Origin: an uncultured virus (IMG/VR IMGVR_UViG_3300037189_010778)
Taxonomy: Duplodnaviria > Heunggongvirae > Uroviricota > Caudoviricetes
Length of the DNA stretch: 64,000 nucleotides
Direction: 5' to 3' (one strand)
IMG/VR virus record: IMGVR_UViG_3300037189_010778
Span: 1 to 64,000 of that record
The position numbers were made by a program, and so were the translations under genes. Below the pieces are notes generated by a model. That model was not told where the DNA came from and made no database searches. It was given only the letters and a program-made list of their open reading frames with translations. Each line of letters opens with the position of its first letter. Position 1 is the stretch's first letter. Of the stretch, positions 20,878-52,317 are shown one piece after another.

Positions 20878-22152
20878 TTAATCTAAATAATCATCTACTA
20901 ATTTTTTCATAACTCTTGCTACATTTGAATTAACATCATATCTATCTCGAAAATAAGATACGTCTTGATCTATATCATTGTTGTGGCTATATTGTTCCCC
21001 ATCTTCAATTGTAAAATTTCTTACAAAATAATTAAATCCCCAATTGTTTTCCAAATCATCATGGATTTTATTCCACTCTTCTTTAGAATATTTTTTAAAA
21101 TCATCATAATATATGTCATTAGGATCTATTTCATCATAAGAATGAAATAAAGCCCATTCCCATATTTCATAATCCGAATTATATAAATCTGGGTAGTCTA
21201 TGAATTTGGCTAGATAGTTTATTAATTTACCTTCATTTTCATAACTTACATCTAATTTTAATAAAGAAGCAATACCAGGATCATTAACTCGCATTTCATT
21301 TACAGATCGATTAGAATAATTAATTATATATTTTTTAATATCATTTAAATTTAATATAATCATAACCCAAACAAATGTTCCTCCACCTTCACTGTCTGTA
21401 TAAAACTCTAATATTGGAATTTCATATTGTTTAAGTTTAGATATAAAAGATCTTAATCCATTTATGTTAAAATCAGGATTCTCAGATTCAATAGCATCCA
21501 TAATATTTTCATCACTATATCCAGCCATTATTTCAGGTTCATTATATATAGGAATAGTGAACATTAATTCTTTATCTTCATCCAATATATTACCATAATA
21601 TTCAACGTTATTTTTCTTATCAATGTATATTATTTCATCTTCATTTTCTTTTTTAAAAATAAGAGAAGAAGGTTCATTAACTCGCATTTCATTAATATCA
21701 GATTTTTGATCTTTGATCTTTTTTAAAAAATCTTCAACAGCATACTGATAAAGTTTTTGATCGTCCTTTACTTCTTTAAGTGCTTTTATATACTTGGGAT
21801 CATTTATATTTATAATATTTTTATTATTAACTGCGTGCTTTAACATGAGTTCATGACCTAAACGATTAGCATACCAGTTAAAATCTCTTTCATCATCAAT
21901 AAGATCACCTAATGTACCTTTATAACCAATTTGTTTAGCGATATCAAATGCTAAAACATTTGCCATTTCACCATCATAAAATTCACTCCAAAAATCCTCA
22001 GGATCGTCGGGTATTATATAATCATCCCAATATTCATCTAAGATATCTTTATAAAGATTATAATTAGTCCAACGATATTTATTTGGTTCATTAACTCGCA
22101 TTTCTGTTATAGGGATACCAGCCAATTTTTGCATGCGATAAAATTCACTCAT
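20878..22152 (-). CDS. Putative polyprotein: RMQKLAGI leader plus three EMRVNxP-headed acidic domains
   Basis: 424 aa; motifs at 22084-22104, 21670-21690, 21277-21297. Confidence 0.7.
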   Translation of the reverse strand: MSEFYRMQKLAGIPITEMRVNEPNKYRWTNYNLYKDILDEYWDDYIIPDDPEDFWSEFYDGEMANVLAFDIAKQIGYKGTLGDLIDDERDFNWYANRLGHELMLKHAVNNKNIININDPKYIKALKEVKDDQKLYQYAVEDFLKKIKDQKSDINEMRVNEPSSLIFKKENEDEIIYIDKKNNVEYYGNILDEDKELMFTIPIYNEPEIMAGYSDENIMDAIESENPDFNINGLRSFISKLKQYEIPILEFYTDSEGGGTFVWVMIILNLNDIKKYIINYSNRSVNEMRVNDPGIASLLKLDVSYENEGKLINYLAKFIDYPDLYNSDYEIWEWALFHSYDEIDPNDIYYDDFKKYSKEEWNKIHDDLENNWGFNYFVRNFTIEDGEQYSHNNDIDQDVSYFRDRYDVNSNVARVMKKLVDDYLD

Positions 22153-22174
22153 GAATGTTAATTTAATATAAATA

Positions 22175-22699
22175 TTATGAAAATAATACTTCTTTAATTG
22201 TTTGAATACGTTCTTTAGTAGTACCTTTAATTTCTACTAAACGTTTAGGTGGATATTCTTTCAACATTTCTTTAATAGTAAAATCAATTTTATCACGATA
22301 ATTACTGTCTATAGTACGTATACCATTATCTTCAATATTTACACCTTCAGGTGAAACATAAAATATAACATCATAATCATTACGTAGATGCATCATCAAA
22401 TTAACAAATTTCTCTTTAACATTCCATTCAATTGAATTAGCACTTAACGTAAATGCGCATACATCATATATAGTTCTATCTGTAATAATATTTTCTTTCA
22501 TTAATTCAACAGAACGTTCAGCAGCAAATACTATTTGTCCTTTTAATGTTGAATCTGTATTTAATGTTATGCCTTGATCTCGTAAATATTTACTACGTTC
22601 AGTAGCAAATTCATAATCTTCAAATTCAGGTAATTCCATTAATGCTTTAACTAAAGTAGTTTTACCACACGATACTGTTCCACAAAAACCTATTTTCAT
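22175..22699 (-). CDS. P-loop nucleotide kinase-like protein (NadR/AAA_28-like)
   Basis: MKIGFCGTVSCGKTTL; IITDRTIYD; YDVIFY; EDNGIR. Confidence 0.75.
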   Translation of the reverse strand: MKIGFCGTVSCGKTTLVKALMELPEFEDYEFATERSKYLRDQGITLNTDSTLKGQIVFAAERSVELMKENIITDRTIYDVCAFTLSANSIEWNVKEKFVNLMMHLRNDYDVIFYVSPEGVNIEDNGIRTIDSNYRDKIDFTIKEMLKEYPPKRLVEIKGTTKERIQTIKEVLFS

Positions 22700-22710
22700 A
22701 TTATTTTATT

Positions 22711-22956
22711 TTATGCTCTTGTTCCTGATTGTTTACCTGCTGCTGTTTTATGAAATGGTACTCCTTCACCATCTTTTTTAATATTTTCCCACTGTTCTTT
22801 AGTTTTTTTAATACCCCAAACATAATACTCTGCTTTACGTTTATCACCTTGTGGTATTAAGGCAGGACCATCATAGTTATGAGTTACAGCCTTACCTTCA
22901 ATGATAGTGTAATATACAATAGTACCGTCTGCTTGTTTTAAATGTTTTGTCTGCAT
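22711..22956 (-). CDS. Hypothetical protein
   Basis: 81 aa; HNYDGPALI...EYYVWG motif. Confidence 0.65.
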   Translation of the reverse strand: MQTKHLKQADGTIVYYTIIEGKAVTHNYDGPALIPQGDKRKAEYYVWGIKKTKEQWENIKKDGEGVPFHKTAAGKQSGTRA

Positions 22957-22974
22957 ATTCTTTTTATTTTTTAT

Positions 22975-23006
22975 TAAATATACTAAAGAATTTTTAAAAA
23001 ACCAAA
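22975..23006 (-). promoter_or_regulatory. Bacteroidota-type -33/-7 promoter
   Basis: TTTG-N20-TATATTTA. Confidence 0.65.
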
Positions 23007-23068
23007 TTTTTTAATTTAAAAATTTTCTATAAAATCTGGGTATTCTTCGTTAGGATCTTGATACATAA

Positions 23069-24352: not shown

Positions 24353-24357
24353 ATTAT

Positions 24358-24389
24358 TAAATATACTAAATTTTATTTAAAAAGCCAAA
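24358..24389 (-). promoter_or_regulatory. Bacteroidota-type -33/-7 promoter
   Basis: TTTG-N20-TATATTTA. Confidence 0.65.
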
Positions 24390-24390
24390 T

Positions 24391-24425
24391 AAAAAGTGGC
24401 GTCTCCTTTTTTTAGGTGACGCCAC
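24391..24425 (-). terminator. Intrinsic terminator
   Basis: Minus strand GTGGCGTCACC...GGAGACGCCAC-TTTTT. Confidence 0.75.
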
Positions 24426-24492
24426 AACTGTCATATTTTATTTATTAAAGCAACCGGCTATGAATCGGTCTGTATGTTGTATTATTTTTATT

Positions 24493-24936: not shown

Positions 24937-24994
24937 TGTTTAATTTTTGATTGTTTAATATAAATATGTAAAAGAAGAGAAAAATACAATTAAT
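24930..24994. repeat. 65-bp perfect direct repeat, copy 1 (late motif + start region)
   Basis: Identical to 25270-25334. Confidence 0.9.
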
Positions 24995-25000
24995 TTTTCA

Positions 25001-25276: not shown

Positions 25277-25334
25277 TGTTTAATTTTTGATTGTTTAATA
25301 TAAATATGTAAAAGAAGAGAAAAATACAATTAAT
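25270..25334. repeat. 65-bp perfect direct repeat, copy 2
   Basis: Identical to 24930-24994. Confidence 0.9.
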
Positions 25335-25336
25335 CT

Positions 25337-25678
25337 TTATATTATCTCTACTCCTAAGTTTTCAAGAGCTGTTTCTAAATCACGAACATAAGAATAATTT
25401 AAACGATCAATTTGTTTAGCATATGGTCCTTTTTCATAAAAAAGAAAATCATATGAATTTTCAAGATTTATACCATACGCTTTAAGGGCAAGTTGTAGCA
25501 AAGATAACCATTCATCTGTTCCTGTTTCTACCGTACCATCATCTATTACTTCTGGGTATTCTTTTTGAATTAGTGCTTTTATTTGTGTAGCTTTATCAGG
25601 TGACTTAACTTGCATTTCATTAATGCCAGCTAATTTTTGCATGCGTTTAAATTCCTCGCTTAATATTTGTTTTTTCAT
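25337..25678 (-). CDS. Hypothetical protein with EFKRMQKLAGINE-MQVKSP leader
   Basis: 113 aa ORF. Confidence 0.7.
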   Translation of the reverse strand: MKKQILSEEFKRMQKLAGINEMQVKSPDKATQIKALIQKEYPEVIDDGTVETGTDEWLSLLQLALKAYGINLENSYDFLFYEKGPYAKQIDRLNYSYVRDLETALENLGVEII

Positions 25679-26425: not shown

Positions 26426-27097
26426 TTATGGAAAAAGTGCTATTGCCTCTGATGATACTGGTAAACCAAGAGAACTATGTGTTATTTTAATATATTCTTT
26501 ATCGTAAACTGTTTTTATACCTTTAGTTATAGTAAAATACTTATCCCAATTTATTTTTTGTAAATCAGCAAAATGTTTATATTGTTTACCTACCCTAACA
26601 TCATATGCATATTTAGACTTATGAGATAATATTACTGAAGGGTGAGTAAGTTTCATTGTATAACCATCGTAATTAACATGAACCACATCTTTTGGTTTTA
26701 AGTATTGACTATTAAACAAATCAATACTGTATTCTAATTTATCATCCTTATGTTTTTCTAACTGTATAAGTTCTTTATTAGTAAAATGTGGTATAGATTT
26801 AACTTTAGCGTATGCTAAATCAGGATTATCCTTTTCTGTTACCATATCATAATCTTCACTATCGGTAATTTTTACATTTAGTTGAAAAAAATCATGTAAT
26901 ATCCTTAAATCTTCTTCAATTAGTGTCTCTTTTAAACCTATGTCTATATCAGGAACACGTTCTGTAAAATTATATTCTATTATATCCATAATGTATAAAG
27001 ATAAACTACCAGCTAATATAAATTTATCGTTAATATTAAGCATAGGTATAATAATATCCTCATATTTTTGCGGAAGTTTGTTTATTTTGTATTCCAT
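26426..27097 (-). CDS. Pol-beta-type nucleotidyltransferase-like protein
   Basis: FILAGSLSL...PDIDIG; C-terminal KHFADL. Confidence 0.55.
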   Translation of the reverse strand: MEYKINKLPQKYEDIIIPMLNINDKFILAGSLSLYIMDIIEYNFTERVPDIDIGLKETLIEEDLRILHDFFQLNVKITDSEDYDMVTEKDNPDLAYAKVKSIPHFTNKELIQLEKHKDDKLEYSIDLFNSQYLKPKDVVHVNYDGYTMKLTHPSVILSHKSKYAYDVRVGKQYKHFADLQKINWDKYFTITKGIKTVYDKEYIKITHSSLGLPVSSEAIALFP

Positions 27098-28290
27098 TAT
27101 CTGTTAATTCTAATTTTAGCGCCTGGTAAATCTTGGTTAATATCATATCCTGAGCAGTGTACCCATAATATAGGTTTAATAGGATTTGTTTTAGGAGCAG
27201 GAGCACATCCATCAGTTAGATAAATTAGGTTAGCATATTTATCTTTATTTTCCATTAAGTATTGCATAACTGGTTCAAAATCAGTACCGCCTCTACCTTT
27301 TACTTCAATATTTTCCCTTTCACCTTTATAGTTGTAGACACGTTGTATAATAGCATCACATTCTACTATATCAACATAAGTACCTGTTTTATATATGTGA
27401 TAAATTTCATTAAAAAATTCAATTAAATCTTTTTGACTAACACTACCAGATGTATCTATAGCTACTAATGTTTTTTTCTTTTGTTTAATTTTTAATGCGG
27501 GGCCGCTTCCAAATCTACGATTTGGTTTACGTCTTGTTTTTTTAGTGTATACTATACTAGACATACTATTAAAACGTCGTAAATAAGATGTCCAATCAAT
27601 AACTGGTTCAATTACTTCAAATAAACTATCAATATAGTCTTGCATTTCTGTTGGTATTAATCCTCTGCCACGATTTTTTAGTTCATTAGCTACTTCTTTT
27701 AATTGATAATCTATTTGTTTAGCTATTAAATTACGTTCAGCTTCACCTAATCCTTCCATTGCCTTCCATAATTCATGTAAATCACCCATACCCTCACCAT
27801 TACCCATCCCTTCCATCATTTTAGCTAAATCTCCATCAGGATTTTCATCCATTTCTTTTTGAAGAGTATCATAATAGTATTTAGTTCCTTGCTTTTCTAA
27901 TAAATTTAATTCTTTAAATGGTGATTGATTAATTTCTAATCCTTCCCATTTATCTCCTTTCATATCTTCATTAATATATTGATTAATTTCTAGATCAGCT
28001 GCTATATTATATAACTGTTTATCTGGGAATCTGTCAAAATTATTTAAATGAAAAAAAGCAATATGTAATAATTCGTGTTTTAATACACCCATTTTTGTTT
28101 TTTCATCTAATAGTGTCCAATATTCAGGATTAACTACTAATTTAACATTAATATTTTCAGGAGTAACACACGCTGTTGATATGCTTGTGTTAAGTTCTTT
28201 ATTAAGAGATATAAGAAATAAGCCATAAAACGGTTCTTTTAACATAAGCGTTTTAGAACATTTAGTAATCTCTTGGTAGATTTTTTCCAT
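27097..28290 (-). CDS. Metallopeptidase-like + VWA domain protein (DUF2201-like)
   Basis: HELLH; NIAADLEIN; AIDTSGS MIDAS; GRGGTDF; YLTDG. Confidence 0.85.
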   Translation of the reverse strand: MEKIYQEITKCSKTLMLKEPFYGLFLISLNKELNTSISTACVTPENINVKLVVNPEYWTLLDEKTKMGVLKHELLHIAFFHLNNFDRFPDKQLYNIAADLEINQYINEDMKGDKWEGLEINQSPFKELNLLEKQGTKYYYDTLQKEMDENPDGDLAKMMEGMGNGEGMGDLHELWKAMEGLGEAERNLIAKQIDYQLKEVANELKNRGRGLIPTEMQDYIDSLFEVIEPVIDWTSYLRRFNSMSSIVYTKKTRRKPNRRFGSGPALKIKQKKKTLVAIDTSGSVSQKDLIEFFNEIYHIYKTGTYVDIVECDAIIQRVYNYKGERENIEVKGRGGTDFEPVMQYLMENKDKYANLIYLTDGCAPAPKTNPIKPILWVHCSGYDINQDLPGAKIRINR

Positions 28291-28300
28291 TTTTTTTGTT

Positions 28301-28332
28301 TAAATATACTAAATTAATCTAAGAAAGCCAAA
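28301..28332 (-). promoter_or_regulatory. Bacteroidota-type -33/-7 promoter
   Basis: TTTG-N20-TATATTTA. Confidence 0.65.
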
Positions 28333-29399
28333 TCAAAGGATTTAATTTGAAATTTATTACTTTTTAAAAGTTCATTAAGATTTTTTAATATAAATGTTTC
28401 AATAATTTGTTTATTTTCTGAGTGGTCTCTGTAATTTTTGTATAGGCCTTTAGCAAAATGTCTCCATTCACTTTTCCAAATAATGCCTCTACTTTTATAA
28501 TAGCGGTCAATTACTTTAAAACTGTTCATAGAAGATGGAGTAATACCAGAACCATGATCAAAGATATTTTGATACTTATTTAGTAATAAAGCTATAGTTA
28601 GAGCATTTGTTTCATCTAATTTAATATTAGACATCATTTCTATAGCTAATTTAACATTATCATTTTGACCACTACTAAGCATACCTTCTAATGTATTTAG
28701 ATATTCATCGTCTATATCTAGACCATCCTCATTTAATTCTTCTAACAAGAATTCATCAAAAATTATGTTAATATTAGGATTAGACTTAAGAAAATCTAAT
28801 AATAATATAACATTTTCTATATTTTTTTCTCGATATAATGACTCATGATATAAATGTTCTATATCAGCATTTTTTACATATTCTATTATATCTGAGCTAG
28901 ATGATGTGTTTAATATTTCACTTGCTCCATCACGTGTATTTATAATTGAAAATGTTCTTTCAGGATATGAAAGTCCCCAATCAGTTCGAGAATAATATTT
29001 TTCAAATAACCTACGAAGTAAATTAAAATTTTCATGATCATGATTTCTAATAATATCTTTCTTATCCATATTCTTTAAAAATTTAAGAGTATTAGTAAGA
29101 AGAGTTTTATCAATAATAATTGAATCACAATATTCTTGACGAGATGTACGTTTTAATTTATTTTCAGTTATGTATTCTTTAAGTTTAAAACGTGGAATAT
29201 TACTTAAAGTTCCAGTATATATTGTTTTACCAAAATTTAAATTTTTAGGTTGAGTTAATAATTTTTCAATTTGACTAATATAATCAAGTTTTTCTTGTTC
29301 ATTTAAAATTACAGCTATTCCTGTATAATTTACTGTTCCGTAATTAGGGTATACATTAACAGAATTAACGTATACTGACGTAGTATTCTTATATATCAT
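28314..29399 (-). CDS. Hypothetical protein in MoxR-VWA module
   Basis: 361 aa ORF. Confidence 0.65.
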   Translation of the reverse strand: MIYKNTTSVYVNSVNVYPNYGTVNYTGIAVILNEQEKLDYISQIEKLLTQPKNLNFGKTIYTGTLSNIPRFKLKEYITENKLKRTSRQEYCDSIIIDKTLLTNTLKFLKNMDKKDIIRNHDHENFNLLRRLFEKYYSRTDWGLSYPERTFSIINTRDGASEILNTSSSSDIIEYVKNADIEHLYHESLYREKNIENVILLLDFLKSNPNINIIFDEFLLEELNEDGLDIDDEYLNTLEGMLSSGQNDNVKLAIEMMSNIKLDETNALTIALLLNKYQNIFDHGSGITPSSMNSFKVIDRYYKSRGIIWKSEWRHFAKGLYKNYRDHSENKQIIETFILKNLNELLKSNKFQIKSFDLAFLD

Positions 29400-29414
29400 A
29401 AATTTAATTTTTTA

Positions 29415-30596: not shown

Positions 30597-30613
30597 ATTT
30601 TTTTTATTTTTAC

Positions 30614-30645
30614 TAAATATAAGCAAGAAATCTTTAAAAACCAAA
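30614..30645 (-). promoter_or_regulatory. Bacteroidota-type -33/-7 promoter
   Basis: TTTG-N20-TATATTTA. Confidence 0.65.
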
Positions 30646-30915: not shown

Positions 30916-31572
30916 TTAGTAGTATTGCCAGTAAATATCGTTAGGACCTAATTTTATTTTATATAAGCGTGGGTTTGTAGGATCACCGTAAAGCAATTCG
31001 GGATCTAATGATATGTATGCTCTATTATCATCACCATCATCTAGCATTATATCATCACCACTGTTCCAAAAACCATATTGTTCTATATCAGCTCTATACC
31101 ATCCGTTTAATACATTACTCCAAGATGGTTCATCATCTCTTTTCCATTCAGGTGTATTCCAAAGTGCGTCTACTAAGATTTTTTTAAATGATGGATTTAA
31201 CACCATATAATTAGCTAGTTGATCATTATTTTTGAATTTAGGTATAGGTTTATTAACCCGCATTTCATTTACAGGTTGTTTATCTAGTATTACTCCATAA
31301 TTCAATAGAAATTCTATAAATGAATCAACATTTCCTTCCCAATAATCTTTTTCTTTGATAAATTTATATGCTTCACGTTTTCTTAATGTTTTATTATCAC
31401 GTGACGCCACTTTAAACAGATAGATAGCATCAGATGTATCTTCATCAAAATCATACCTAATATCATCCCAGTCTTGATCTAACCATTTTTCAAATTCAGG
31501 ATTAAGATAATATATTTTATCATCAGGAAAATTAATCCGCATCTCATTTAATACATTTATTAATTTTATCAT
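30916..31572 (-). CDS. Two-domain protein, MIKLINVLNE leader, two EMR(V/I)NxP tags
   Basis: Motifs at 31525-31545 and 31246-31266. Confidence 0.7.
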   Translation of the reverse strand: MIKLINVLNEMRINFPDDKIYYLNPEFEKWLDQDWDDIRYDFDEDTSDAIYLFKVASRDNKTLRKREAYKFIKEKDYWEGNVDSFIEFLLNYGVILDKQPVNEMRVNKPIPKFKNNDQLANYMVLNPSFKKILVDALWNTPEWKRDDEPSWSNVLNGWYRADIEQYGFWNSGDDIMLDDGDDNRAYISLDPELLYGDPTNPRLYKIKLGPNDIYWQYY

Positions 31573-31584: not shown

Positions 31585-32238
31585 TTAATAGTTATGACAG
31601 TATAAAGTGTAATCGCCTTCTCCTATGTAAGATATTTCAATTTTTTTATAGCAAACGTTAGTAGTTATAGTAGTACCGCTTTTATCTCCAAAAATTTCAA
31701 AAAGTATTTCATTTGGTTTAAAACGAGTATAATATGATAATATATATTTTTTAGCTTCTTTTCCGTCTTCACTTAATTGATCTTCATCATTGTAAAAACT
31801 CCATTCATTTATTAAAAAATCATCTAATGAATCATAACCAAAACTTTTATAAAGTTCTTGTAGTGATGAATTACTTGTTATATAAGCTAACAAATATGGT
31901 TTTTTATCTATAAAATAATCCAAAATCTGTTCTTTAGAAAGAGATATAGGTTTATTAACTCGCATTTCACTTAAAGCTTCAACAGGTTCATACCAGTTTG
32001 TACAGTATTCATCAGCGGCATATGGTATCTTGTTAGTGCCAGCCCATTCAGCATAATATGTGTTATTACATACTTGATCTTCTTTATTCCACCATTTACA
32101 ATTAGCACAGCATGAACCTCCTTTAGGTACTTTCATTCCAGCTTTATGACTATCTGGTAGTTCCATAGGGCCAGGACCACCATATTCTTCTTTTAATTGT
32201 TGTTGTATTAGGTAATTAGTTATGTTGAATTGTTTCAT
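31585..32238 (-). CDS. Cys-rich domain fused to EMRVNKP-headed domain
   Basis: CCANC...C...C cluster; motif at 31948-31968. Confidence 0.7.
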   Translation of the reverse strand: MKQFNITNYLIQQQLKEEYGGPGPMELPDSHKAGMKVPKGGSCCANCKWWNKEDQVCNNTYYAEWAGTNKIPYAADEYCTNWYEPVEALSEMRVNKPISLSKEQILDYFIDKKPYLLAYITSNSSLQELYKSFGYDSLDDFLINEWSFYNDEDQLSEDGKEAKKYILSYYTRFKPNEILFEIFGDKSGTTITTNVCYKKIEISYIGEGDYTLYCHNY

Positions 32239-32242
32239 ATTT

Positions 32243-35200
32243 TTATGATTCTGTTAAATCGTTCATGTTATATATTCTGTTATAATCTTCTTGTTTTTCA
32301 GGCATACCTGATGAAAGATATACATTGTTTCCTAACATAGAATCACCAGATATGTTATCTTTTATGACGTTACCTTCTGCATCCATTATAACCCAAGATT
32401 CATAGTACATATTATCCTTATTAGATTTAGGAAGTAAAACATACTTTTTACCTTTATCATTAATAATAAACGGTACAGCGAATAATAAAGTACTATATTT
32501 TGTATTTTGATTGAATTTTTCAACTAAATTAATTATTGTTTTTCGTTCAGAAGTTGATAATTTACGCCATTGTTCTTCATCTATAGGGACTGGGTTTACT
32601 TCTTGTGTAGGCATTGCGTTTCTATTTTCTAAATCTTCACTACTTATATTAGTTCCTTCTTCATAAATCCATGGTTCAAATAATTTAATATATAATTCAT
32701 ATAATTGTTTAAGTTTTGGGTCACTAATATAATCAATAGCTTCTGGTGGGAGGAAATCAAGTTCTTTAGCCATTTTATTAACGTATGTTTTAGCAGCGTC
32801 TTCACCAAAATATTTTTTAATATATTCAAAAGATAAACTATCTTTTTCAAAAATATCTAAATATTGTTGTTTTTCTTCATCACTTAAATATTCAATAAAA
32901 GGTAAAGGTACAATGGTAGTTGATGTTTTACCTTGTTTATAGTCATCTAAAGCTCTAGTAAATCTAAATTTAGCATAACTTCGTGATAAAGCTTTACTAT
33001 CTTTCAAATCGTTATATGTAGGTTTATATCCAGTACCAGTTCGTAAAGCTAAATTTTTTAATTCTGGATCTAGGATTTTAAACATAGCACTATTAAATGC
33101 ATTTGGTTGATCTGCTCTATTAGCGATATATATTCTTTTTTGATTTCTGTTTAAATCTTTAAACATATTGAAATCTAAAATTTTATCTCTTACTAAAGCT
33201 TGATCAGTTTCTTCTTCAGATGGAGGGACATATTTAAATACATCTTTAAGATTTTTTATTTTTTCCCAAGCTTGTTTTCCACTTTCACCTCCATTTTTTA
33301 TCATAAATTGTCCCACTTCATCCCAAGACATTCCTTTATCATTTCCAGTAGCTTCATGATTTGAACCCCATTGATTTACAGTATCTGTCACTCCAAATTT
33401 ACCATTTTGGAAAGCATGTATTACAAAAAAGTGATACCAATTTATAAAATTTTCTCTATTTGATGGATTACCTTTTATATCCGCATTTTGAGTAGAATCT
33501 GCTACAAAATAAAAACTTCTAAATGCTCCACCTCGACCAAAACGATATGTGTAATATTGATTTGATGCTTCTTCTTTTCTACCTATACAAAATCCGTAAG
33601 AATAAATTTTATTATCTTCTCCTTTATATTTAAAAGCATAATTTAATTTAATACAACCACCGTAATCACTTCCTTCATAAATTTTAAGCCCATTATTGTT
33701 ATATACTACTGGTACTCCTTTTATATCAATAAGTTCAGCATCTTGAATTGTACTAAAATCTTTTGATGATTTTTCAGCTTTTCCACCATAAGCGTCTAAA
33801 ACAGTTTCTAAATCTTTCCAAGTATAATTTAAAATATCTTGTGGGTTTAAAATTTTATTAGTTTTAGGATCAGGTTCAGTAAATTTCTTAGGTACTATTA
33901 TTCCTCCAGCTTCTCCTTTAAGTCCTGCTTGTATTTTTTTAGGGAGATTTTGTTTAATTTGATCAAATCTATTTAACTTTTCTTTAATATCATCTTTTGA
34001 CAGAGTATTTTTCATTTCTTTTTGAAATTTTTCTGTCATTTGATTAATAATCTTTTCAGAGTACTCATTTAATTGAGTTCTTTTTGATTCTCTTAAATCT
34101 TTAAATTCTTTTGTTTTATATACTTTATCTATTTGTATTTCTCTATCATCAAATACTATTCTAACATTACCACCATAATGTGTATTTCCATCTATTCCAG
34201 CTCTTAATAAGAATAAAGAGGTATCTTTAGGAGGATTTTTAGATTTTTTTCCATAAAAATTTTCTATAGTATGATAAACTTTACTACCTATCATAGATGT
34301 ATTTATATTAACATCCACATTATCTTTTTGGGCTTGTTTATTAATTTTATCAACTTGATATTGAGGAATAGGACCATCCCAATTTAAATAATCAGGAGTT
34401 TTATTAGGAAATAATGTAACTTTATATATATAATGCATTGATTCCTGTTCTACTTCTAGATCTTTAATAATTTCTATAAATTTACGGTAGTTATCTAATA
34501 CTTCTTCTTTACTTTCAAAATCAGGTTCTTCTTCAAGAATAGAAATCATGTCTTCTGCATATTCTATATATTCTTTAGCTGTTTTTAGTCCTTGCGGTAA
34601 TCCAAAAAATACTTCATTTTCATATTCTAAACCTAATTCTTCAGCAGTTTTACCTTGAAATAATGTTTTAAACCTATGGGGTGTATTTATAGATAAAGCA
34701 TATCCTTTAACCATTTCTGGATTTTTTCCGAAATATAAACCCCATCCAATTACTTGTATTCCTGTTCCCCCACCCATTCCTTCACTGTGAAATTGTCTAA
34801 AATAATTTGGTGAACCATGCCATGCCTCTTCATTTTCATTTAATGGTTTAGTTTTATCTATTTTAGAAAATGTTTTTTTAATTTCTTTATTAAATGATTC
34901 AAGAAATATTTCAGCAAAAGTTTGTTTATGCATATTTTCTTTTTTTATCGGTTTTAGTTTTTTTATTAAATTTTCTCGTGCCCAAAATCTTTGACCAGTT
35001 TTATCATCATCTATTAAATACCAAGGAATACCATCTTTTTCAGTGTAATATCTGTTATAATCTTTAGATAAGGTTAATGTTTCATTACCTAATGATACTT
35101 TTTCTCCTGGGTAGAATTTTTTAGGCTCATTAACTCGCATTTCAACTAATGGAGCGTATTTTCTAATTAATGACATAGCTACCGACCTAGGTTCCCAAGA

Positions 35201-36079
35201 ATCAGGATTGTTTCTATCTATATGAGGAGTATCCATATATGGGGGAGGGTTAGTTATAGCACTTGTCGATACTACTTTTAAGTTATTATCTTCTTGCTCT
35301 GCTTTTTTAGACCAACGTGCTACATTCCATCCAGTAAATGCAGCTATTATTTTTTCTTTAGATAAATCTATTAAATAATTTTCTGGTTCACGATATGTTA
35401 ATTTTGGGATTTGTTTATAGTCATCATATGAGTGAATTTCTCCGTATGCCTTTTCATATTTGAACGGTTCATTAACTCGCATTTCCTTAATAACATCTGT
35501 TTTTTTAAATTCTCCTATCAAATATGATTCAAAATCATTATCATCAATAACATCAGCAAGATAAAATGAGTAGCAATCATTATTATTTATAACTTCATCT
35601 ACAGAATATTTTACACTTTTTGTTGTATATATTTCATCATCATAATCTATAATATCTTTTTTAACTTGGGCAAGAGCACTTCTAAATAAACAATCTATAT
35701 CTACATTTTCTTCATAGAATTTAGTTATTAATTTGTATAGATAGTTTTTTAAGTTAGGATTAATTTCAAGATATTCTTTAATATTTTCTTCATCTATCAG
35801 ATCTTCATTATTATATGATAAAAGTATTTCTTCACCATCTTTAAATATCTCATGATTATTAAAGATCATTTGATCTATTATAAAAGATTTGAGTACATCA
35901 TATTGTTCAATTAAATAATCTAAATCAATACCATCAGATTCAAATGTATCTATTACGCGTAAAACTACATAATCTTTAATTTTAGATATTATTTCAGGAG
36001 AAATACCATAAGTAAGAGATTTGGGTTTATTAACCCTCATCTCATTTAAAAATTTATCAGTCAGTTTAAATTCTATCAT
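32243..36079 (-). CDS. Large multidomain polyprotein with three EMRVNxP tags and an ADP-ribosyltransferase-like (ART-PolyVal-type) domain
   Basis: 1278 aa; WHGSPNYFRQF...GGGTG...GWGLYF near 34730-34822. Confidence 0.7.
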   Translation of the reverse strand: MIEFKLTDKFLNEMRVNKPKSLTYGISPEIISKIKDYVVLRVIDTFESDGIDLDYLIEQYDVLKSFIIDQMIFNNHEIFKDGEEILLSYNNEDLIDEENIKEYLEINPNLKNYLYKLITKFYEENVDIDCLFRSALAQVKKDIIDYDDEIYTTKSVKYSVDEVINNNDCYSFYLADVIDDNDFESYLIGEFKKTDVIKEMRVNEPFKYEKAYGEIHSYDDYKQIPKLTYREPENYLIDLSKEKIIAAFTGWNVARWSKKAEQEDNNLKVVSTSAITNPPPYMDTPHIDRNNPDSWEPRSVAMSLIRKYAPLVEMRVNEPKKFYPGEKVSLGNETLTLSKDYNRYYTEKDGIPWYLIDDDKTGQRFWARENLIKKLKPIKKENMHKQTFAEIFLESFNKEIKKTFSKIDKTKPLNENEEAWHGSPNYFRQFHSEGMGGGTGIQVIGWGLYFGKNPEMVKGYALSINTPHRFKTLFQGKTAEELGLEYENEVFFGLPQGLKTAKEYIEYAEDMISILEEEPDFESKEEVLDNYRKFIEIIKDLEVEQESMHYIYKVTLFPNKTPDYLNWDGPIPQYQVDKINKQAQKDNVDVNINTSMIGSKVYHTIENFYGKKSKNPPKDTSLFLLRAGIDGNTHYGGNVRIVFDDREIQIDKVYKTKEFKDLRESKRTQLNEYSEKIINQMTEKFQKEMKNTLSKDDIKEKLNRFDQIKQNLPKKIQAGLKGEAGGIIVPKKFTEPDPKTNKILNPQDILNYTWKDLETVLDAYGGKAEKSSKDFSTIQDAELIDIKGVPVVYNNNGLKIYEGSDYGGCIKLNYAFKYKGEDNKIYSYGFCIGRKEEASNQYYTYRFGRGGAFRSFYFVADSTQNADIKGNPSNRENFINWYHFFVIHAFQNGKFGVTDTVNQWGSNHEATGNDKGMSWDEVGQFMIKNGGESGKQAWEKIKNLKDVFKYVPPSEEETDQALVRDKILDFNMFKDLNRNQKRIYIANRADQPNAFNSAMFKILDPELKNLALRTGTGYKPTYNDLKDSKALSRSYAKFRFTRALDDYKQGKTSTTIVPLPFIEYLSDEEKQQYLDIFEKDSLSFEYIKKYFGEDAAKTYVNKMAKELDFLPPEAIDYISDPKLKQLYELYIKLFEPWIYEEGTNISSEDLENRNAMPTQEVNPVPIDEEQWRKLSTSERKTIINLVEKFNQNTKYSTLLFAVPFIINDKGKKYVLLPKSNKDNMYYESWVIMDAEGNVIKDNISGDSMLGNNVYLSSGMPEKQEDYNRIYNMNDLTES

Positions 36080-36443: not shown

Positions 36444-37172
36444 TTAAAATACTTCCGGATTTTCTTTATAGTCTTTATAGCTTACAGTTAAGAACCCTTT
36501 ATTATTAAACTCACTAAGAGTTCTTGAATAATCTTCATCCCATAGTGGTTCCTTATAACTTATACCATCATTGTGTCTTTCTACTAAATATTCTTCTCCA
36601 ACATAATATCCATAAGCTATAGTAAATTTATTTGTACCTAATTGATTATATAAAGTCACAAATGGGAGTAATACATCTTCTATATCATCTTTTATTTCTT
36701 TTAAAGACATCAATTCTTCTTTATCTGGTTCTACTATTATATGATCACCTTCTATGTATGGTAATTCTTCTTGTGATTGCCAATAATCAGTACTATTATT
36801 AGCGTCTAAAATATATTTTAATATGCCTTGATTATCATTGTTATTATAATAGTCAACTAATGTTAATGCATCATTTTTAGTTAAAGTATCTTCAAATATG
36901 TCACTTATTGGTCCTTTCATAAATCTATATAGATCTTTAAAACCATAATACCCACCAGCTAAATAATTAATATCTTTTTTTAATTCATTAACTACATTTT
37001 GTAATGTGTCATTATATTCACTAAATCTTCCACCCATTTCAGAATCAGAATATATAAATTCTACTATTATATCTGCGTCAACATCTGTATAAGATTCACT
37101 AGTAGCTTTTATATACAATACGCCAGGTTCATTAACCCGCATTTCATTTAATATATCTATTAATTTAATCAT
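36444..37172 (-). CDS. Acidic hypothetical protein, MIKLIDILNE-MRVNEP leader
   Basis: 242 aa; motif 37125-37145. Confidence 0.7.
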   Translation of the reverse strand: MIKLIDILNEMRVNEPGVLYIKATSESYTDVDADIIVEFIYSDSEMGGRFSEYNDTLQNVVNELKKDINYLAGGYYGFKDLYRFMKGPISDIFEDTLTKNDALTLVDYYNNNDNQGILKYILDANNSTDYWQSQEELPYIEGDHIIVEPDKEELMSLKEIKDDIEDVLLPFVTLYNQLGTNKFTIAYGYYVGEEYLVERHNDGISYKEPLWDEDYSRTLSEFNNKGFLTVSYKDYKENPEVF

Positions 37173-37174: not shown

Positions 37175-38638
37175 TTAAATTCTATTTCCGTCCTCATCAA
37201 AGTTTTTAACATCTGGATAATACTTTCCAGAGCTATCAAACCATCCAACATATCTATCTTCGTCTTGACCAGCATATGGGCTATATACTGTTATTTCTTG
37301 ATTTTTCCTATCAATATTTACGGCAGTATAATAAGCATCGGGTGGTGCACCTAGGGCTGTACTGTAAGCAAATATGTCTTTTGTTACATGCGTTCCAGGT
37401 GATTTTTTAAGTAGATGACGTATTGCTAATAACGCTTTACTATCTTCATCTAAATCTTCATAATCTTTTAATCTGTATGTTTCACGCGCAGGTTCATATA
37501 AATCAAAACCATAATCTGATTCTCCAAAATACTCTACTAATACCCATAATGCTTCTTCATCTTTATTTGTTAATTGTCCTGGAATGTTAATCCGCATTTC
37601 TTTTACAGGAATACCCGCTAGTTTTTGCATGCGTTTCATTTCATCCAAACCTTCTAAACCAGTATCATCTTTTTTAAGATCAGAGTTTATATCACGCATA
37701 GTATAAAACGCCCATCTTTTTTGCTCATTTGTTAATTCATCATTGATAGCATTTTCAACAAATGAATAAAATTCATCATAATCTGCTATTTTATACAATT
37801 CAGCTAAAAATAAATCTCTAACACGAGGATCATCAAATTCAGACTCTACCCATATTTTAGTTATATTATTGTATATATATTGCCCAAATCTTATATCATC
37901 TAATTCATTTTTATATGTATCAACTTGATTAGTGACTTTTTTAGCTTCTTCTCCACCTGATTCTTTACGTTTAGGAAAAGATACATTTACTCTTCCTACT
38001 CCTTCTAATTGATCACCATAACGATCAATAACTTGCAATAATTTAGCTATTTGATTTTCATCATGATATCCACCAAATATATCATCCATAACTTGAGCAT
38101 AATCATCAGTTAATTCAGGATTAATAAGATCTAAATAATCTTTGTAATTATAATGACTGAATGCTCCTCGTACTGCTCCACCTTGTGTTATACTATTTAT
38201 GATACGTCTTTTTTCAGGAGAAACCTTATTATGGTAAGCTTGTTTAGATATAATCTCATATAATCCTTTAGCTATTTCATGCATTAAAATAGGAAATACT
38301 AATCCTCGAGCGTGAATTACAATATCATGTTTTTTTAGTAATTCTGGGTCAGTTTGGTATGGTTTTCCTAATTTGGTATCTTTTCCTAATTTAGCATCTA
38401 TACCTATCCCAGCATAGTCTATTACAGGATATACTTCTTTAGCTATTTGAACAGCTAAAGCTTCTAATTCATCCTTATAATCTGCTTCTGCTGCTTCTAA
38501 TTTATTTACTAAACTAAACGCGTTAGCCTGCATTTGTCCAGGTGATCTTCCTTTTAAAACTTTACTAAGAGTATCTTTAGATTTTCCTTTAAGTGTACCT
38601 AAAGTTTTAGGTGAGAATATATTTTTGTATTCAGCCAT
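37175..38638 (-). CDS. Hypothetical protein with appended RMQKLAGI-EMRINIP module
   Basis: 487 aa; FPILMHEIAKG; internal leader/tag at 37580-37639. Confidence 0.7.
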   Translation of the reverse strand: MAEYKNIFSPKTLGTLKGKSKDTLSKVLKGRSPGQMQANAFSLVNKLEAAEADYKDELEALAVQIAKEVYPVIDYAGIGIDAKLGKDTKLGKPYQTDPELLKKHDIVIHARGLVFPILMHEIAKGLYEIISKQAYHNKVSPEKRRIINSITQGGAVRGAFSHYNYKDYLDLINPELTDDYAQVMDDIFGGYHDENQIAKLLQVIDRYGDQLEGVGRVNVSFPKRKESGGEEAKKVTNQVDTYKNELDDIRFGQYIYNNITKIWVESEFDDPRVRDLFLAELYKIADYDEFYSFVENAINDELTNEQKRWAFYTMRDINSDLKKDDTGLEGLDEMKRMQKLAGIPVKEMRINIPGQLTNKDEEALWVLVEYFGESDYGFDLYEPARETYRLKDYEDLDEDSKALLAIRHLLKKSPGTHVTKDIFAYSTALGAPPDAYYTAVNIDRKNQEITVYSPYAGQDEDRYVGWFDSSGKYYPDVKNFDEDGNRI

Positions 38639-50362: not shown

Positions 50363-50369
50363 ATAACCT

Positions 50370-50401
50370 ATAATATACCATCTTAAAATTAGATAGCCAA
50401 A
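50370..50401 (-). promoter_or_regulatory. Bacteroidota-type promoter upstream of primase
   Basis: TTTG-N20-TATATTAT. Confidence 0.6.
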
Positions 50402-50838
50402 TCTTTTGGAAAAAATTTTCCTAGTATATTACTATTTACCCATATCTTATCATCAGCTAATACATCGTATTCAAATAGATATTTTGTTTCATAGTAGGTT
50501 AACTCTTTTGAGGACAAGCATAGACGTAACACTACACGTTGTAATTTTTCAGGTGGTATAGATTTAGCCCATTGTTTAACTTCATCAGCTGAGCCGTAAT
50601 ATGTCTTCCAATCTGATTCTTTTATTATTTTTTTCTTAGATGGAATACGGCCACGTTGAGTAGGTAAGGATGCTAATTCTTTCTTACCTAGTTTTTTATT
50701 TGTTGTATGTTTAAATATTTTTTTACCAATATATTGACGACCATTTTCTAGATTAGTTGTCATATAAACGTAACCATAATATTCATCTATATTAAATGTA
50801 GGATCGTTGATTAAATCATCAACTAATAGTGGTTTCAT
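50389..50838 (-). CDS. GIY-YIG endonuclease (T4 EndoII/Seg-like); probable start 50838
   Basis: GYVYMTTNLENGRQYIGKK; ESDWKTYYGS. Confidence 0.8.
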   Translation of the reverse strand: MKPLLVDDLINDPTFNIDEYYGYVYMTTNLENGRQYIGKKIFKHTTNKKLGKKELASLPTQRGRIPSKKKIIKESDWKTYYGSADEVKQWAKSIPPEKLQRVVLRLCLSSKELTYYETKYLFEYDVLADDKIWVNSNILGKFFPKDLAI

Positions 50839-50851
50839 AACTTGTGATATA

Positions 50852-51361
50852 TTACATATAAATATTACCTTCAACACCCGGTGCCATTTGTCTAATTTCT
50901 TCTTCGGTATGTGATTTGGAAAGTGGAGTATTACTTAAAGAAAGATAATCTTTAACTTCTAAATTAGGAGGTAATGATGCGATTAGAGTATCACTTAAAT
51001 GAAGACTCCATCCAACTTTTAAATCAGGAGGTAATGATGTAATTGGGGCACCAATTAAATAAAGATCACCTCCAACATTTAAACCAGGAGGTAATGATTT
51101 AATTGGGGTACCACGTAAATCAAGATTACCTCCAACTTCTAAATCAGAAGGTAATGACATAATTAGAGTATCACGTAAATCAAGATTACCTCCAACTTTT
51201 AAACCAGGAGGTAATGATTTAATTGGAGTATCCATTAAATTAAGATCACCTGTTCCTCCATTTCTTATGTAATCTCTTGCTTGTTGATTGGCTAGTTGGA
51301 GTGGAGTTAATTTAGGTGGGTTAACTCTCATTTCTTTCAGTATGTCAAGTAATTTTATCAT
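50852..51361 (-). CDS. Leucine-rich-repeat-like protein, paralog 3
   Basis: MIKLLDILKE-MRVNPP; five 20-aa repeats xxLxLxxTPIxSLPxxLxVx plus a partial one. Confidence 0.8.
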   Translation of the reverse strand: MIKLLDILKEMRVNPPKLTPLQLANQQARDYIRNGGTGDLNLMDTPIKSLPPGLKVGGNLDLRDTLIMSLPSDLEVGGNLDLRGTPIKSLPPGLNVGGDLYLIGAPITSLPPDLKVGWSLHLSDTLIASLPPNLEVKDYLSLSNTPLSKSHTEEEIRQMAPGVEGNIYM

Positions 51362-51362
51362 G

Positions 51363-51869
51363 TTATATAAATATTGCACTTTTGATACCTGGTGACATTA
51401 ATCTAATTTGGTCTTCTGTATGTGATTTAGCAAGTGGGGTATTATATAAAAAAAGACTACCCCAAACTTCTAAATCAGGAGGTAATGATGTGATTAGTGT
51501 ATTGTGTAAATTAAGATAACTTCCAACTTTTAAGCCAGATGGTAATGATGTGATTGGAGCATTAATTAAAGAAAGACTACCTTCAATTTCTAAATTAGGA
51601 GGCAATGATGTAATAGGAGTATTATCTAAAGAAAGGCTACCTTCAACTTTTAAATCAGGAGGTAATGATGTGATTAAAGTATCATCTAGACTAAGTTTAC
51701 CTCCAACCTTTAAGCCAGAAGGTAATGATTTAATTGGAGTATATGCTAAACCAAGATCACCTATTCCTCCATTCCTTATGTAATCTCTTATTCTATTCTG
51801 AGCTGATTGGAGTGGAGTTAATTTCATATTAACTCTCATTTCATTCAATATATTTATTAGTTTTATCAT
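51363..51869 (-). CDS. Leucine-rich-repeat-like protein, paralog 2
   Basis: MIKLINILNE-MRVN; five repeats plus a partial one. Confidence 0.8.
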   Translation of the reverse strand: MIKLINILNEMRVNMKLTPLQSAQNRIRDYIRNGGIGDLGLAYTPIKSLPSGLKVGGKLSLDDTLITSLPPDLKVEGSLSLDNTPITSLPPNLEIEGSLSLINAPITSLPSGLKVGSYLNLHNTLITSLPPDLEVWGSLFLYNTPLAKSHTEDQIRLMSPGIKSAIFI

Positions 51870-51870
51870 A

Positions 51871-52317
51871 TTATATAAAAATTTCACCTTCAACTCTAGG
51901 TATCATTTGTTTAATTTGTTCTAGGGTGTGTGATTTAGAAAGTGGAGTATTACTTAAACTAAGATAACCTTTAACCTTTAAATCAGAGGGTAATGATGTG
52001 ATTAAAGTATCACTTAAATTAAGATTACCCCCAACTTTTAAACCAGGAGGTAATGATGTAATTGGAGTATAATATAAATAGATATGACCTCCAACTTTTA
52101 GATTAGGAGGTAATGATTTAATTGGTGTATTTTCTAAATCAAGATTACCTCCAACCTTTAAGCCAGAAGGTAATGATCTAATTGGTGTATTTTCTAAATC
52201 AAGATTACCTACTTCCCCATTTTTTATGTAATCTCTTATTCTATTTTGAGCTAATTGAAGTGGAGTTAATTGTGTATTAACTTTCATTTCTTTTAATATG
52301 TCGAGTAGTTTTATCAT
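51871..52317 (-). CDS. Leucine-rich-repeat-like protein, paralog 1
   Basis: MIKLLDILKE-MKVN; four repeats plus a partial one. Confidence 0.8.
   Translation of the reverse strand: MIKLLDILKEMKVNTQLTPLQLAQNRIRDYIKNGEVGNLDLENTPIRSLPSGLKVGGNLDLENTPIKSLPPNLKVGGHIYLYYTPITSLPPGLKVGGNLNLSDTLITSLPSDLKVKGYLSLSNTPLSKSHTLEQIKQMIPRVEGEIFI

Follow-up and report, generated by a model that had tools for sequence, protein, structure and literature searches.

Tag-bordered modules behind candidate capsid-address peptides suggest head-protease-processed cargo polyproteins in an uncultured T4-like phage

In bacteriophage T4, the prohead protease gp21 is described as cutting after the Glu of an L/I-x-E motif with few other determinants (PMC9026906). 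Its internal proteins (IPI, IPII, IPIII and Alt) form a diverse, fast-evolving cargo behind a shared leader, the capsid targeting sequence (CTS), according to the accounts in PMC9026906 and PMC3012670; one of them, Alt, is presented as a head-packaged, gp21-processed and injected ADP-ribosyltransferase (ART) (PMC5512222, PMC9026906). Phages of the phiKZ type are described as cutting after S/A-x-E, and for the giant phages phiKZ, 201phi2-1 and SPN3US a three-residue motif is described at which many proteins of the head and of ejection are cut behind Glu, internally as well, and their propeptides are discussed as probable targeting signals for the head (PMC9026906, PMC5694885, PMC7411985, PMC10052503). 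A third comparison is offered by the polyvalent proteins of Iyer, Burroughs, Anand, de Souza and Aravind (2017), large multi-module proteins marked by ART-PolyVal-type domains and predicted to enter the host with the DNA, which are likened there to viral polyproteins released by peptidases and in which embedded processing peptidases (zincin-like metallopeptidases (MPTases), assemblin-like and others) are said to be common without being universal (PMC5512222). Here we analyse 64,000 nucleotides of an uncultured virus of the Caudoviricetes (positions 1 to 64,000 of IMG/VR record IMGVR_UViG_3300037189_010778, hereafter the window), where a short peptide tag built on M-R-V-N-x-P recurs behind leaders and between the modules of ten late-operon proteins. 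On balance we judge it probable, from the sequences, that these are capsid-loaded cargo polyproteins processed by the head protease, with joints that double as recombination points; the system would most likely be a variant of the T4 theme of CTS and internal proteins.

The tag reads [L/I/V]-x-E-M-[R/K/Q]-[V/I]-[N/K]-x-(P) and occurs in 15 in-frame copies within 10 minus-strand open reading frames (ORFs), each at the position listed in the first-pass annotation, which was made from the sequence alone. Three copies lie in each of the 424-aa and 1278-aa proteins, two in the 218-aa protein, and one each in the 113-, 217-, 242- and 487-aa proteins and in three tandem proteins resembling leucine-rich repeat (LRR) proteins (Table 1); the other five reading frames of the window hold no E-M-[RKQ]-[VI]-[NK]. 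The hydrophobic-x-E that had been said to precede the tag nearly always is present in every copy, with P3 being L, I or V (8, 4 and 3 copies) and P1 being E throughout. Beyond the Glu, P1' is M in all 15 copies, P2' is R in 13 (Q and K once each), P3' is V in 13 and I in two, P4' is N in 14 and K in one, and P6' is P in 13. Chance would account for 0.10 copies, as calculated from the amino-acid composition of 22,983 ORF residues, and 2000 residue shuffles gave a mean of 0.12 and a maximum of 2. The same phage is represented by a complete IMG/VR record (160,908 bp, offset +36 to the window), which we used for whole-genome counts: the pattern GARATGMRNRTTAAY has 14 matches in it, all on the reverse strand and all at 21-52 kb, against none for a reversed-pattern control, and the 15th copy, EMQVK, ends in AAG and hence falls outside this pattern. 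No tag was found outside 21-52 kb, either in the complete 160.9-kb genome or in the rest of the phage's own 75.8-kb contig. A looser pattern has one forward-strand match in the complete genome beyond the window, at G001:C1:125988-126007 (+) (GAAGTTAACGTTAATCCACC, E-V-N-V-N-P-P). The first-pass annotation knew of no earlier account of the tag, and a full-text literature search, with subscription journals outside its coverage, found no published description of EMRVN or MQKLAG peptides. Most predicted fragments are rich in aromatic residues and acidic, the majority having a pI of 4.2-5.1 and the others reaching 6.7, apart from one LRR protein at 9.2, so that the acidic and aromatic character claimed for the flanking domains holds for most of them.

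All long ORFs of the window are on the minus strand of a genome with 30% G+C, and a Pfam scan of the window proteins reveals a head module of T4 type in T4 gene order. The protease, which had been called gp21-like, belongs to Peptidase_S77 (E 9.6e-29, 100.7 bits against a curated cut-off of 27), and its own N-terminus reads MKQVLIE. The N-terminal propeptide of the major capsid protein (MCP), upstream of the conserved core, carries the sites LLE, LLE, L-x-LE and VTE, which are invariant across 37 homologues. By MCP, the nearest cultured relative is Flavobacterium phage vB_FspM_immuto (52.6% identity), and more than 8000 MCP relatives are found at E<=1e-30. The locus shares with the T4 system a T4-like head module, an S77 protease and leaders ending in hydrophobic-x-Glu. 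Since the sites in the MCP, the scaffold and the protease itself lack the residues that follow Glu in the tag, the protease probably needs no prime-side residues, and another cause must account for their conservation in the tag.

A leader ending in hydrophobic-x-E (10, 13, 17 or 21 residues) opens nine of the ten tagged proteins, and the tenth, the 487-aa protein, carries its address-type peptide internally; tags were accordingly seen both behind N-terminal leaders and inside proteins, as first described. Leader A has the form ..EFxRMQKLAGI followed by hydrophobic-x-E, and its core is identical to the C-terminus of the scaffold-like protein (..PIIE-VNSAFERMQKLAGIKK and stop). In the complete genome, QKLAG is confined to the scaffold-like protein and three tagged proteins. 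MQKLAGI has at least 123 matches in IMG/VR, and among the matches listed 88 are the C-terminal end of an ORF that directly precedes an MCP-like start, 26 are the N-terminal leader of small variable proteins from AT-rich phage contigs, and nine belong elsewhere. The 25 distinct leader-A proteins among these listed matches all have a hydrophobic-x-E no more than 8 residues after LAG, and one of them has a tag-like sequence. In a 65-row IMG/VR alignment of scaffold C-termini (L134-L254), R-M-Q-K-L-A-G-I-(I/K)-K never varies, and ahead of it, some 17 residues from the end, stands an almost invariant I-x-E, for which reason the terminal peptide of the scaffold looks detachable by the same rule. The peptide is found, too, at the C-terminus of cargo-type proteins (P0026, P0022 and P0048, with a looser form in the ART protein of L282), and in immuto the scaffold ends RWQKLAGIIK while one leader-A protein is annotated as hypothetical. 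In this the phage differs from T4: one type of leader copies the C-terminal peptide of the scaffold and may sit at either end of a protein.

Leader B, MIKL[IL][ND][IV]L[NK]E, is exactly 10 residues long in all five cases, with the hydrophobic P3 at residue 8 and the Glu at residue 10. It resembles the 10-residue T4 CTS in length and motif positions, as these are given in PMC9026906, where the corresponding positions are reported to control processing. The presence of one motif at leader ends and before the scaffold peptide fits removable address peptides, and both types of leader may well signal the capsid. In T4, an Asp in place of the Glu blocks processing while leaving targeting intact. A further leader-like family, approximately F-(N/D)-x-x-x-(Y/F)-L-x-x-N-K-L-L-x-E, is seen at the N-terminus of 31585-32238 and in L309, L281, L275, P0011 and P0012; the N-terminus of this 217-aa protein (MKQFNITNYLIQQQLKE) resembles leaders ending in ..NKLLQE that we met when scanning IMG/VR for EIK[VIM]NKP. 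Peptides of this ..NKLL type are N-terminal and directly precede tags in L309, and one forms the C-terminus of a homologue of the 487-aa N-domain in L281. A 265-aa protein beside the terminase (20050-20847, minus strand) starts with MKKSQLKQLIKEMIISE, which resembles the leader of P0003 (MKKSRLKQIIQEEIQNVLGE-MRVNPP) as well as internal stretches of the scaffold-like P0016 and P0026, and may represent a third type of address.

The modules of the tagged proteins are independent, swappable units bordered by tags. A phmmer search of 1.84 billion representatives with the 424-aa protein returned 31 proteins at E<=0.001, including stand-alone homologues of 108-170 aa in separate families for module 1 (residues ~2-132), module 2 (153-277) and module 3 (278-423), each with its own N-terminal leader or none. 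Residues 1-24 of P0002 match residues 1-24 of the 424-aa protein (leader plus tag) and lead directly into module 2, which shows 5 differences over 137 residues by manual count from the alignment; the similarity stops at tag 3, after which a different module follows. For the 1278-aa protein we assembled 19 orthologous sequences (890-2142 aa). In the L274 orthologue, leader and tag (..FLSE-ITVNKP) are joined straight to the second module and the 186-residue first module is missing, in P0049 the two N-terminal modules stand in the opposite order, and P0034, P0037, P0040 and P0042 have extra tag-separated modules beyond the conserved core, the last of which is homologous to a stand-alone 85-aa protein (leader A plus tag) in L275. 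Whole genes come and go in the same way, L274 being without the 242-aa gene between conserved neighbours and L275 without the 424-aa gene at otherwise syntenic loci. In P0051, a homologue of the 487-aa N-domain (37598-38638) is fused to the N-terminus of the ART-like protein (32243-36079), which suggests that the two act together.

An AlphaFold2 model of the 424-aa protein, built from a 16-row alignment that omitted the module-1 homologues (misplaced by global MAFFT alignment), has a mean predicted local distance difference test (pLDDT) score of 72.5, and its segments below 50 include residues 1-30, 146-162 and 284-292. Modules 2 and 3 are predicted with confidence and all three tags lie in low-confidence linkers; because module 1 lacked alignment depth, two of the three tags are informative. 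In this model, then, tags 2 and 3 fall in predicted linkers; structure prediction had been proposed earlier as a check on whether tags lie at domain boundaries. Against the PDB, Foldseek gave no match at E<=0.001 for the 424-aa model (its top-ranking rows, at E ~0.1, were kinases and type III secretion chaperones), and the best Z in a wide VIA-align search was 5.3 (kinase N-lobes), within the common range. Weak, non-significant Foldseek rows link module 2 (residues ~165-275) to CesT, SycH and ExsC (E ~0.1-0.5, probability 0.5-0.7).

One module of the tagged proteins has an assignable family. The 965-residue part of the 1278-aa protein contains WHGS...GWGLYF...LLRAGIDG...VFDD, and scores below threshold for ART-PolyVal (PF18760; E 0.042, 15 bits against a cut-off of 31.2), as do its orthologues P0034, P0037 and P0049 (E 2e-4 to 8e-4). 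The homologue P0057 passes the cut-off with 50.5 bits, and hhalign aligns the 1278-aa protein with PF18760-bearing homologues over 212 columns (probability 99.8, E 1.9e-28). The ESM Atlas gave a weak lead for the 965-aa part (0.75, ART-PolyVal in 11% of members); a PDB sequence search with this part found no match, and a model of the ART region (mean pLDDT 62, catalytic stretch below 50) had no Foldseek match. The ART clade of T4 Alt differs from that of the ART-PolyVal-like domain, but the presence of an ART-like member within a diverse cargo recalls the internal proteins of T4.

The joint itself differs between lineages. Joints orthologous to those of this phage read VDE-IHINKP and LSE-ITVNKP in L274 and INE-MKVNKP in L275. 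By a strict joint pattern counted over the 19 orthologues of the 1278-aa protein, P0034 has 10 matches (EIK[VI]N[KT]P, with EIKVKKP at the N-terminus), P0040 five (EIEVG[IL][PS]), P0037 three (EIE[IV]G..), P0049 three (EIKVN[DN]P), P0042, P0045 and P0046 two each and P0033 and P0050 one each, the last five being varied. From these we conclude that the general joint, at the level of sequence, is [L/I/V]-x-E followed by hydrophobic-x-[V/I] and a Pro two or three residues later, and that the M, R and N of the tag belong specifically to this phage and to P0002 and P0003, its nearest relatives, because orthologous joints read EIHINKP, EITVNKP, EIKVNKP, EIEVGIP and EIKVQP. Self-cleavage at Asn was considered and rejected, since other lineages have Gly, Gln or Thr in place of Asn. 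Scanning IMG/VR for EIK[VIM]NKP gave 128 matches in 97 distinct contexts: 13 directly follow recognisable leaders (8 ..LAG[IL], 3 MIKL.. and 2 ..NKLLQ) and two come after very short ones; among the internal matches a hydrophobic P3 is present in 23 and absent from 13; 23 more fall under other, and in a final 23 a stop codon follows closely, these last two groups being largely chance. A control scan for EIEVGIP gave 39 matches at 38 loci, three of them in the expected context and all on the P0040 contig, the remainder having neither a leader nor a hydrophobic P3. The 15-nt core GAAATGCGRGTTAAT has mostly chance matches in IMG/VR, the phage's own record (L071) being the one real occurrence; leader A plus tag as a single pattern likewise finds its own record alone in IMG/VR, and two relatives in Joint Genome Institute (JGI) metagenomes. 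Immuto has no tag apart from one EMNVN. The scan of the full genome and of relatives that the first-pass annotation had proposed therefore locates the tag nowhere else in the genome, and reveals relatives with uniform joint versions of their own.

Within the genome, the joints are alike down to the codon. Most copies share the 15-nt core GAAATGCGRGTTAAT, and the 13 tag Arg codons comprise six CGA and four CGG, which make up 9.1% and 1.4% of Arg codons genome-wide, so that tags hold four of the ten CGG codons counted; the tag Val codon is GTT in 13 of 13 cases against 37% genome-wide. In L281, four of five copies encode the tag Ile by ATC, a codon rare in that genome (7% usage). Across lineages the codons vary (ATA, ATT or ATC at P1'; CAT, ACA or AAA at P2'; GTA or GTT at P3'), so that there is no universal nucleotide signal. 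The simplest account of the sequences would be copying or gene conversion among the joints within each genome, which fits the tag-to-tag rearrangements described above; the alternatives are parallel single-base changes selected by the protease, or selection for a rare codon at module borders.

The mechanism we propose would run as follows. Ten late-operon proteins, built of independently folding, swappable modules, would each be guided to the prohead under assembly by a short peptide at one terminus, either the copy of the scaffold C-terminus or the 10-residue amphipathic leader. Each leader end and each module joint carries [L/I/V]-x-Glu and then a short extended linker, M-R-V-N-x-P in this phage, and the S77 protease would most likely cut after the Glu inside the prohead, removing the address peptide and separating the modules. 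The predicted products are small proteins of ~90-230 residues and one ART-PolyVal-like enzyme of 965 residues, which would stay in the head and could leave it with the DNA. The prime-side half of the joint is probably no second address, and may instead be a lineage-specific linker or extended site with DNA-level identity within a genome; recombination at the joints would add, remove and rearrange modules, and/or the joints would co-evolve with the single protease.

Several observations weigh against this reading. The phage is uncultured, and cleavage after Glu, packaging and ejection, like the recombination role of the joints, are all inferred. The hydrophobic-x-Glu sites of the MCP and scaffold lack the prime-side residues of the tag, which the protease presumably does not need, Pro is missing from two LRR copies, and the strict pattern detects no tag in 10 of the 19 orthologues of the 1278-aa protein, although some of these ten carry looser forms by eye (EIKVQP, EIEILKP or a MKINLPG start). 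In another phage (L259), module 3 has a homologue that lacks any leader, so belonging to the capsid is not intrinsic to the modules; the AlphaFold2 model has low confidence along the whole of module 1, where a low pLDDT therefore tells little; and fold searches gave no module a function. The rare codons could stem from parallel single-base changes (CAA->CGA, AAA->AGA) and not from copying. Finally, the upstream word ATATTTAT[AT], treated below, is not enriched overall, with 27 matches against 20.3 expected and 8 of 100 shuffles reaching 27.

The same facts can be read without any cleavage. The joints might be uncut hinges or docking sites, flexible linkers and recombination scars in proteins that act intact in the capsid or the cytoplasm, with hydrophobic-x-Glu being merely part of the linker consensus. 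The position of the joints in predicted linkers and at sites of module exchange would be expected from such hinges, and so would MCP and scaffold sites that go without the prime-side residues. We nevertheless regard this as rather unlikely: the hydrophobic P3 and the P1 Glu are present in 15 of 15 copies and constant across lineages while the other positions drift, and the same motif ends all 25 N-terminal leaders among the matches listed and precedes the terminal peptide of the scaffold.

If cleavage does take place, all the predicted products would carry an MRVNxP-type end, and the first-pass annotation had proposed that this new N-terminus is a shared second signal for anchoring or ejection. 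The prime side is indeed more conserved in this genome than a minimal gp21-type site requires. Yet the joints of relatives (IHINKP, ITVNKP, IKVNKP, IEVGIP, IKVQP) have in common no more than hydrophobic-x-hydrophobic and Pro, 24 of the 25 leader-A proteins among the IMG/VR matches listed have the cleavage motif without the tag, and identity down to the codon speaks for copying, not for selection acting copy by copy. With M, R and N specific to the lineage, the MCP and scaffold sites lacking the sequence and the codons indicating homogenisation at the DNA level, we consider a second signal improbable, and this part of the earlier proposal is unsupported; its interpretation as a whole is partly supported. 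The first-pass annotation mentioned neither the link of RMQKLAGI to the scaffold nor the shuffling of modules from tag to tag.

A different enzyme, or a different bond, is still less probable. The candidates would be the putative DUF2201-type metallopeptidase or a host protease, and a putative metallopeptidase/VWA protein and a MoxR-like ATPase do lie between the tagged genes; zincin-like peptidases, moreover, are described as frequent processors of polyvalent proteins (PMC5512222). However, a homologue of the metallopeptidase with 50% identity is encoded by G002, which has a single chance-like tag match, and the enzyme is absent from immuto and G003, and so does not track the tags; the motif, for its part, fits the S77/gp21 rule and no known metallopeptidase rule. 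In this part of the locus (27097-30644, minus strand), the putative DUF2201 metallopeptidase/VWA-like protein (397 aa) lies among the cargo genes together with a 361-aa ORF and a MoxR/AAA_5-like ATPase (409 aa, phrog_1297).

That the tag acts at the nucleotide level, through an internal start codon, promoter activity, an RNA motif or pausing at rare codons, and that its peptide is incidental, is very unlikely, for although GAAATGCGRGTTAAT is nearly invariant with its rare Arg codons, a rare Ile codon recurs in the L281 tag and a rare codon at module borders could slow translation and aid folding, all copies are in frame and in one reading direction, relatives keep the peptide pattern while codons and residues change, and a general internal ATG start is ruled out by the Ile at P1' in most lineages.

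Returning to head-protease-processed cargo polyproteins, the comparison with described systems brings out several differences. The T4 CTS system has no counterpart of the conserved prime-side extension MRVNxP, and in contrast to T4 internal copies would make polyproteins, with up to three joints in this phage and ten in a relative. For the giant phages, PMC9026906 speaks of 'extremely few other cleavage determinants', whereas six more residues are conserved here, in a genome-specific and DNA-identical form, and they bound modules which relatives exchange. The large multi-module architecture and the ART-PolyVal-like domain recall polyvalent proteins as portrayed in PMC5512222, but most modules here are small, acidic and without a recognised fold, and we found no embedded peptidase in the tagged proteins (Pfam at E<=0.01, the 1278-, 487- and 242-aa pieces rescanned at E<=10). 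The modules would instead be released at a repeated tag by the head protease, a separate protein. The tagged proteins also found no family in PHROGs or Pfam, save sub-cut-off matches to Curlin_rpt (218-aa protein) and LRR, and when the 424-aa protein and the 30 residues of its N-terminus were compared by tblastn with 50,697 phage records, there were chance hits and no match.

Analogies reach further afield. In polymorphic toxins, junction motifs such as VENN (CdiA) and PxxxxDPxGL (Rhs) mark the border of a recombining module, and the Rhs motif is a cleavage site as well; the likeness is one of analogy only, the sequences, proteins and delivery route being unrelated to the tag system. In the polyproteins cut by potyvirus NIa and picornavirus 3C, the joints of one genome share an extended consensus that differs between lineages. 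Unlike here, these belong to eukaryotic RNA viruses with unrelated proteases, and the phage joints would serve accessory cargo and not a replicative proteome. The C-terminal coat-binding peptide of the P22 scaffold and the cargo-loading peptides of encapsulins are terminal peptides that direct a protein inside an HK97-fold shell, which leader A, being equal to the terminal peptide of the scaffold, may resemble.

A bolder version, which we put forward tentatively and think possible without holding it to be the likelier outcome, is that an aquatic T4-like clade shares a portable capsid-loading code in which three parts are all realised. The detachable RMQKLAGI of the scaffold would be reused at either end of a protein as a cargo label. 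Each genome's own joint ([L/I/V]-x-E and about six residues) would co-evolve with its head protease, giving polyproteins of up to ten or more units cut apart in the head. The DNA identity of the joints would permit effector modules to recombine, as a capsid-internal counterpart of polymorphic-toxin cassettes.

If the proposed reading is true, it would explain how a large and common environmental group of T4-like phages loads many unrelated small proteins together with an ADP-ribosyltransferase-like enzyme, and how the payload of these phages is renewed so fast. The address peptide and the joint would together provide a sequence rule by which metagenomes can be searched for candidate injected effectors, while the natural pairs of protease and site would be suited to study how prime-side specificity evolves in gp21/assemblin-type proteases. 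Address peptide and cleavable linker might further serve as ready parts when foreign proteins are to be put into phage heads, a use already made of the T4 CTS. The coordinates of the features are collected in Table 1.

Table 1. Head-module genes, tagged proteins and individual tags in the window.
Feature	Position	Strand	Basis
Major capsid protein (MCP), Gp23 family	10149..11930	-	Pfam
Scaffold-like acidic protein, rich in [LIVM]-x-E, encoded between protease and MCP, ends ..KQPIIE-VNSAFERMQKLAGIKK and stop	11966..13069	-	
Scaffold C-terminal peptide VNSAFERMQKLAGIKK, I-I-E site before it, RMQKLAGI core as in leader A	11969..12016	-	
Prohead protease, Peptidase_S77, T4 gp21 family; LIE at residues 5-7	13237..13854	-	PF03420
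T4-type portal	16466-18361	-	Pfam
Large terminase (TerL)	18405-19979	-	Pfam
424-aa putative cargo polyprotein: leader A (MSEFYRMQKLAGIPITE), then three tag-delimited modules	20878..22152	-	
Tag 3 of 424-aa protein, VNE-MRVNDP, residues 286-292, within pLDDT<50 segment 284-292	21277..21297	-	
Tag 2 of 424-aa protein, INE-MRVNEP, residues 155-161, within pLDDT<50 segment 146-162	21670..21690	-	
Tag 1 of 424-aa protein, ITE-MRVNEP, residues 17-23	22084..22104	-	
113-aa protein: leader A (MKKQILSEEFKRMQKLAGINE), variant tag, 92-aa module	25337..25678	-	
Variant tag of 113-aa protein, INE-MQVKSP	25598..25618	-	
DUF2201-type putative metallopeptidase	27097-28290	-	
218-aa protein: 10-aa leader B (MIKLINVLNE), then two tag-delimited modules	30916..31572	-	
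Tag of 218-aa protein, VNE-MRVNKP	31246..31266	-	
Tag of 218-aa protein, LNE-MRINFP	31525..31545	-	
217-aa protein: Cys-rich 91-aa N-part, tag, 126-aa module	31585..32238	-	
Tag of 217-aa protein, LSE-MRVNKP	31948..31968	-	
1278-aa putative polyprotein: 13-aa leader, two small modules, 965-aa part with ART-PolyVal-like domain	32243..36079	-	
Tag of 1278-aa protein, LVE-MRVNEP	35123..35143	-	
Tag of 1278-aa protein, IKE-MRVNEP	35465..35485	-	
Tag of 1278-aa protein, LNE-MRVNKP, codons GAG ATG AGG	36023..36043	-	
242-aa protein: 10-aa leader B (MIKLIDILNE), tag, 232-aa acidic module	36444..37172	-	
Tag of 242-aa protein, LNE-MRVNEP	37125..37145	-	
487-aa protein: 347-aa N-domain ending in internal leader-A-like peptide (..EMKRMQKLAGIPVKE), tag, 140-aa module	37175..38638	-	
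Tag of 487-aa protein, VKE-MRINIP; orthologous joint in L274 is VDE-IHINKP	37580..37600	-	
LRR-like protein 1, probable ATG start 51361: leader B MIKLLDILKE, tag	50852..51361	-	
Tag of LRR-like protein 1, LKE-MRVNPP, Arg codon AGA	51314..51334	-	
LRR-like protein 2, probable ATG start 51869: leader B MIKLINILNE, tag	51363..51869	-	
Tag of LRR-like protein 2, LNE-MRVNMK, no Pro	51822..51842	-	
LRR-like protein 3: leader B MIKLLDILKE, tag	51871..52317	-	
Tag of LRR-like protein 3, LKE-MKVNTQ, no Pro	52270..52290	-	

Upstream of the genes, the word ATATTTAT[AT] is a candidate late promoter or start context. It stands 4-25 nt upstream of the portal, the terminase, several tail-side genes and the genes of the 424-aa and 113-aa proteins, that is, before the starts at 5744, 8840, 10079, 16432, 18361, 19979, 20847, 22152, 24936, 25276, 25678, 26410, 39637, 40305, 45745 and 54961 (all minus strand), and 23 of its 27 matches are on the coding strand. 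In the cargo block at 30.9-38.6 kb and among the LRR genes, which both follow genes carrying the word, there are no gaps. The T4 late promoter TATAAATA has 12 minus-strand matches, and after none of them does a listed gene begin within the next 120 nt. Another motif, TTTGG(T/C)TTTTT...TAGTATATTTAA, precedes 22956, 24352, 28290 and 40652 on the minus strand (in the form TAATATATTTAG at 40652), the genes being an 81-aa ORF, an FAD oxidoreductase, the DUF2201 protein and a 111-aa ORF, and may mark a different promoter class. About 55 identical nucleotides (AATTGTATTTTTCTCTTCTTTTACATATTTATATTAAACAATCAAAAATTAAACA) are shared by 24937-25000 and 25277-25336 (minus strand), upstream of a 147-aa and a 91-aa ORF.

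In the three tandem genes at 50852-52317, the putative assignment to leucine-rich repeats comes from sub-threshold LRR_1 and LRR_4 matches (18 bits) in one gene of the three, and a repeat TPIxSLPxxLxVxGxLxL is visible in the sequence. Right after this array, an ORF at 50389-50877 (minus strand), whose GTG start overlaps the end of the last LRR gene, matches phrog_447 (NAD synthetase, E 1.4e-31) as well as phrog_7363 and phrog_314 (homing endonuclease).

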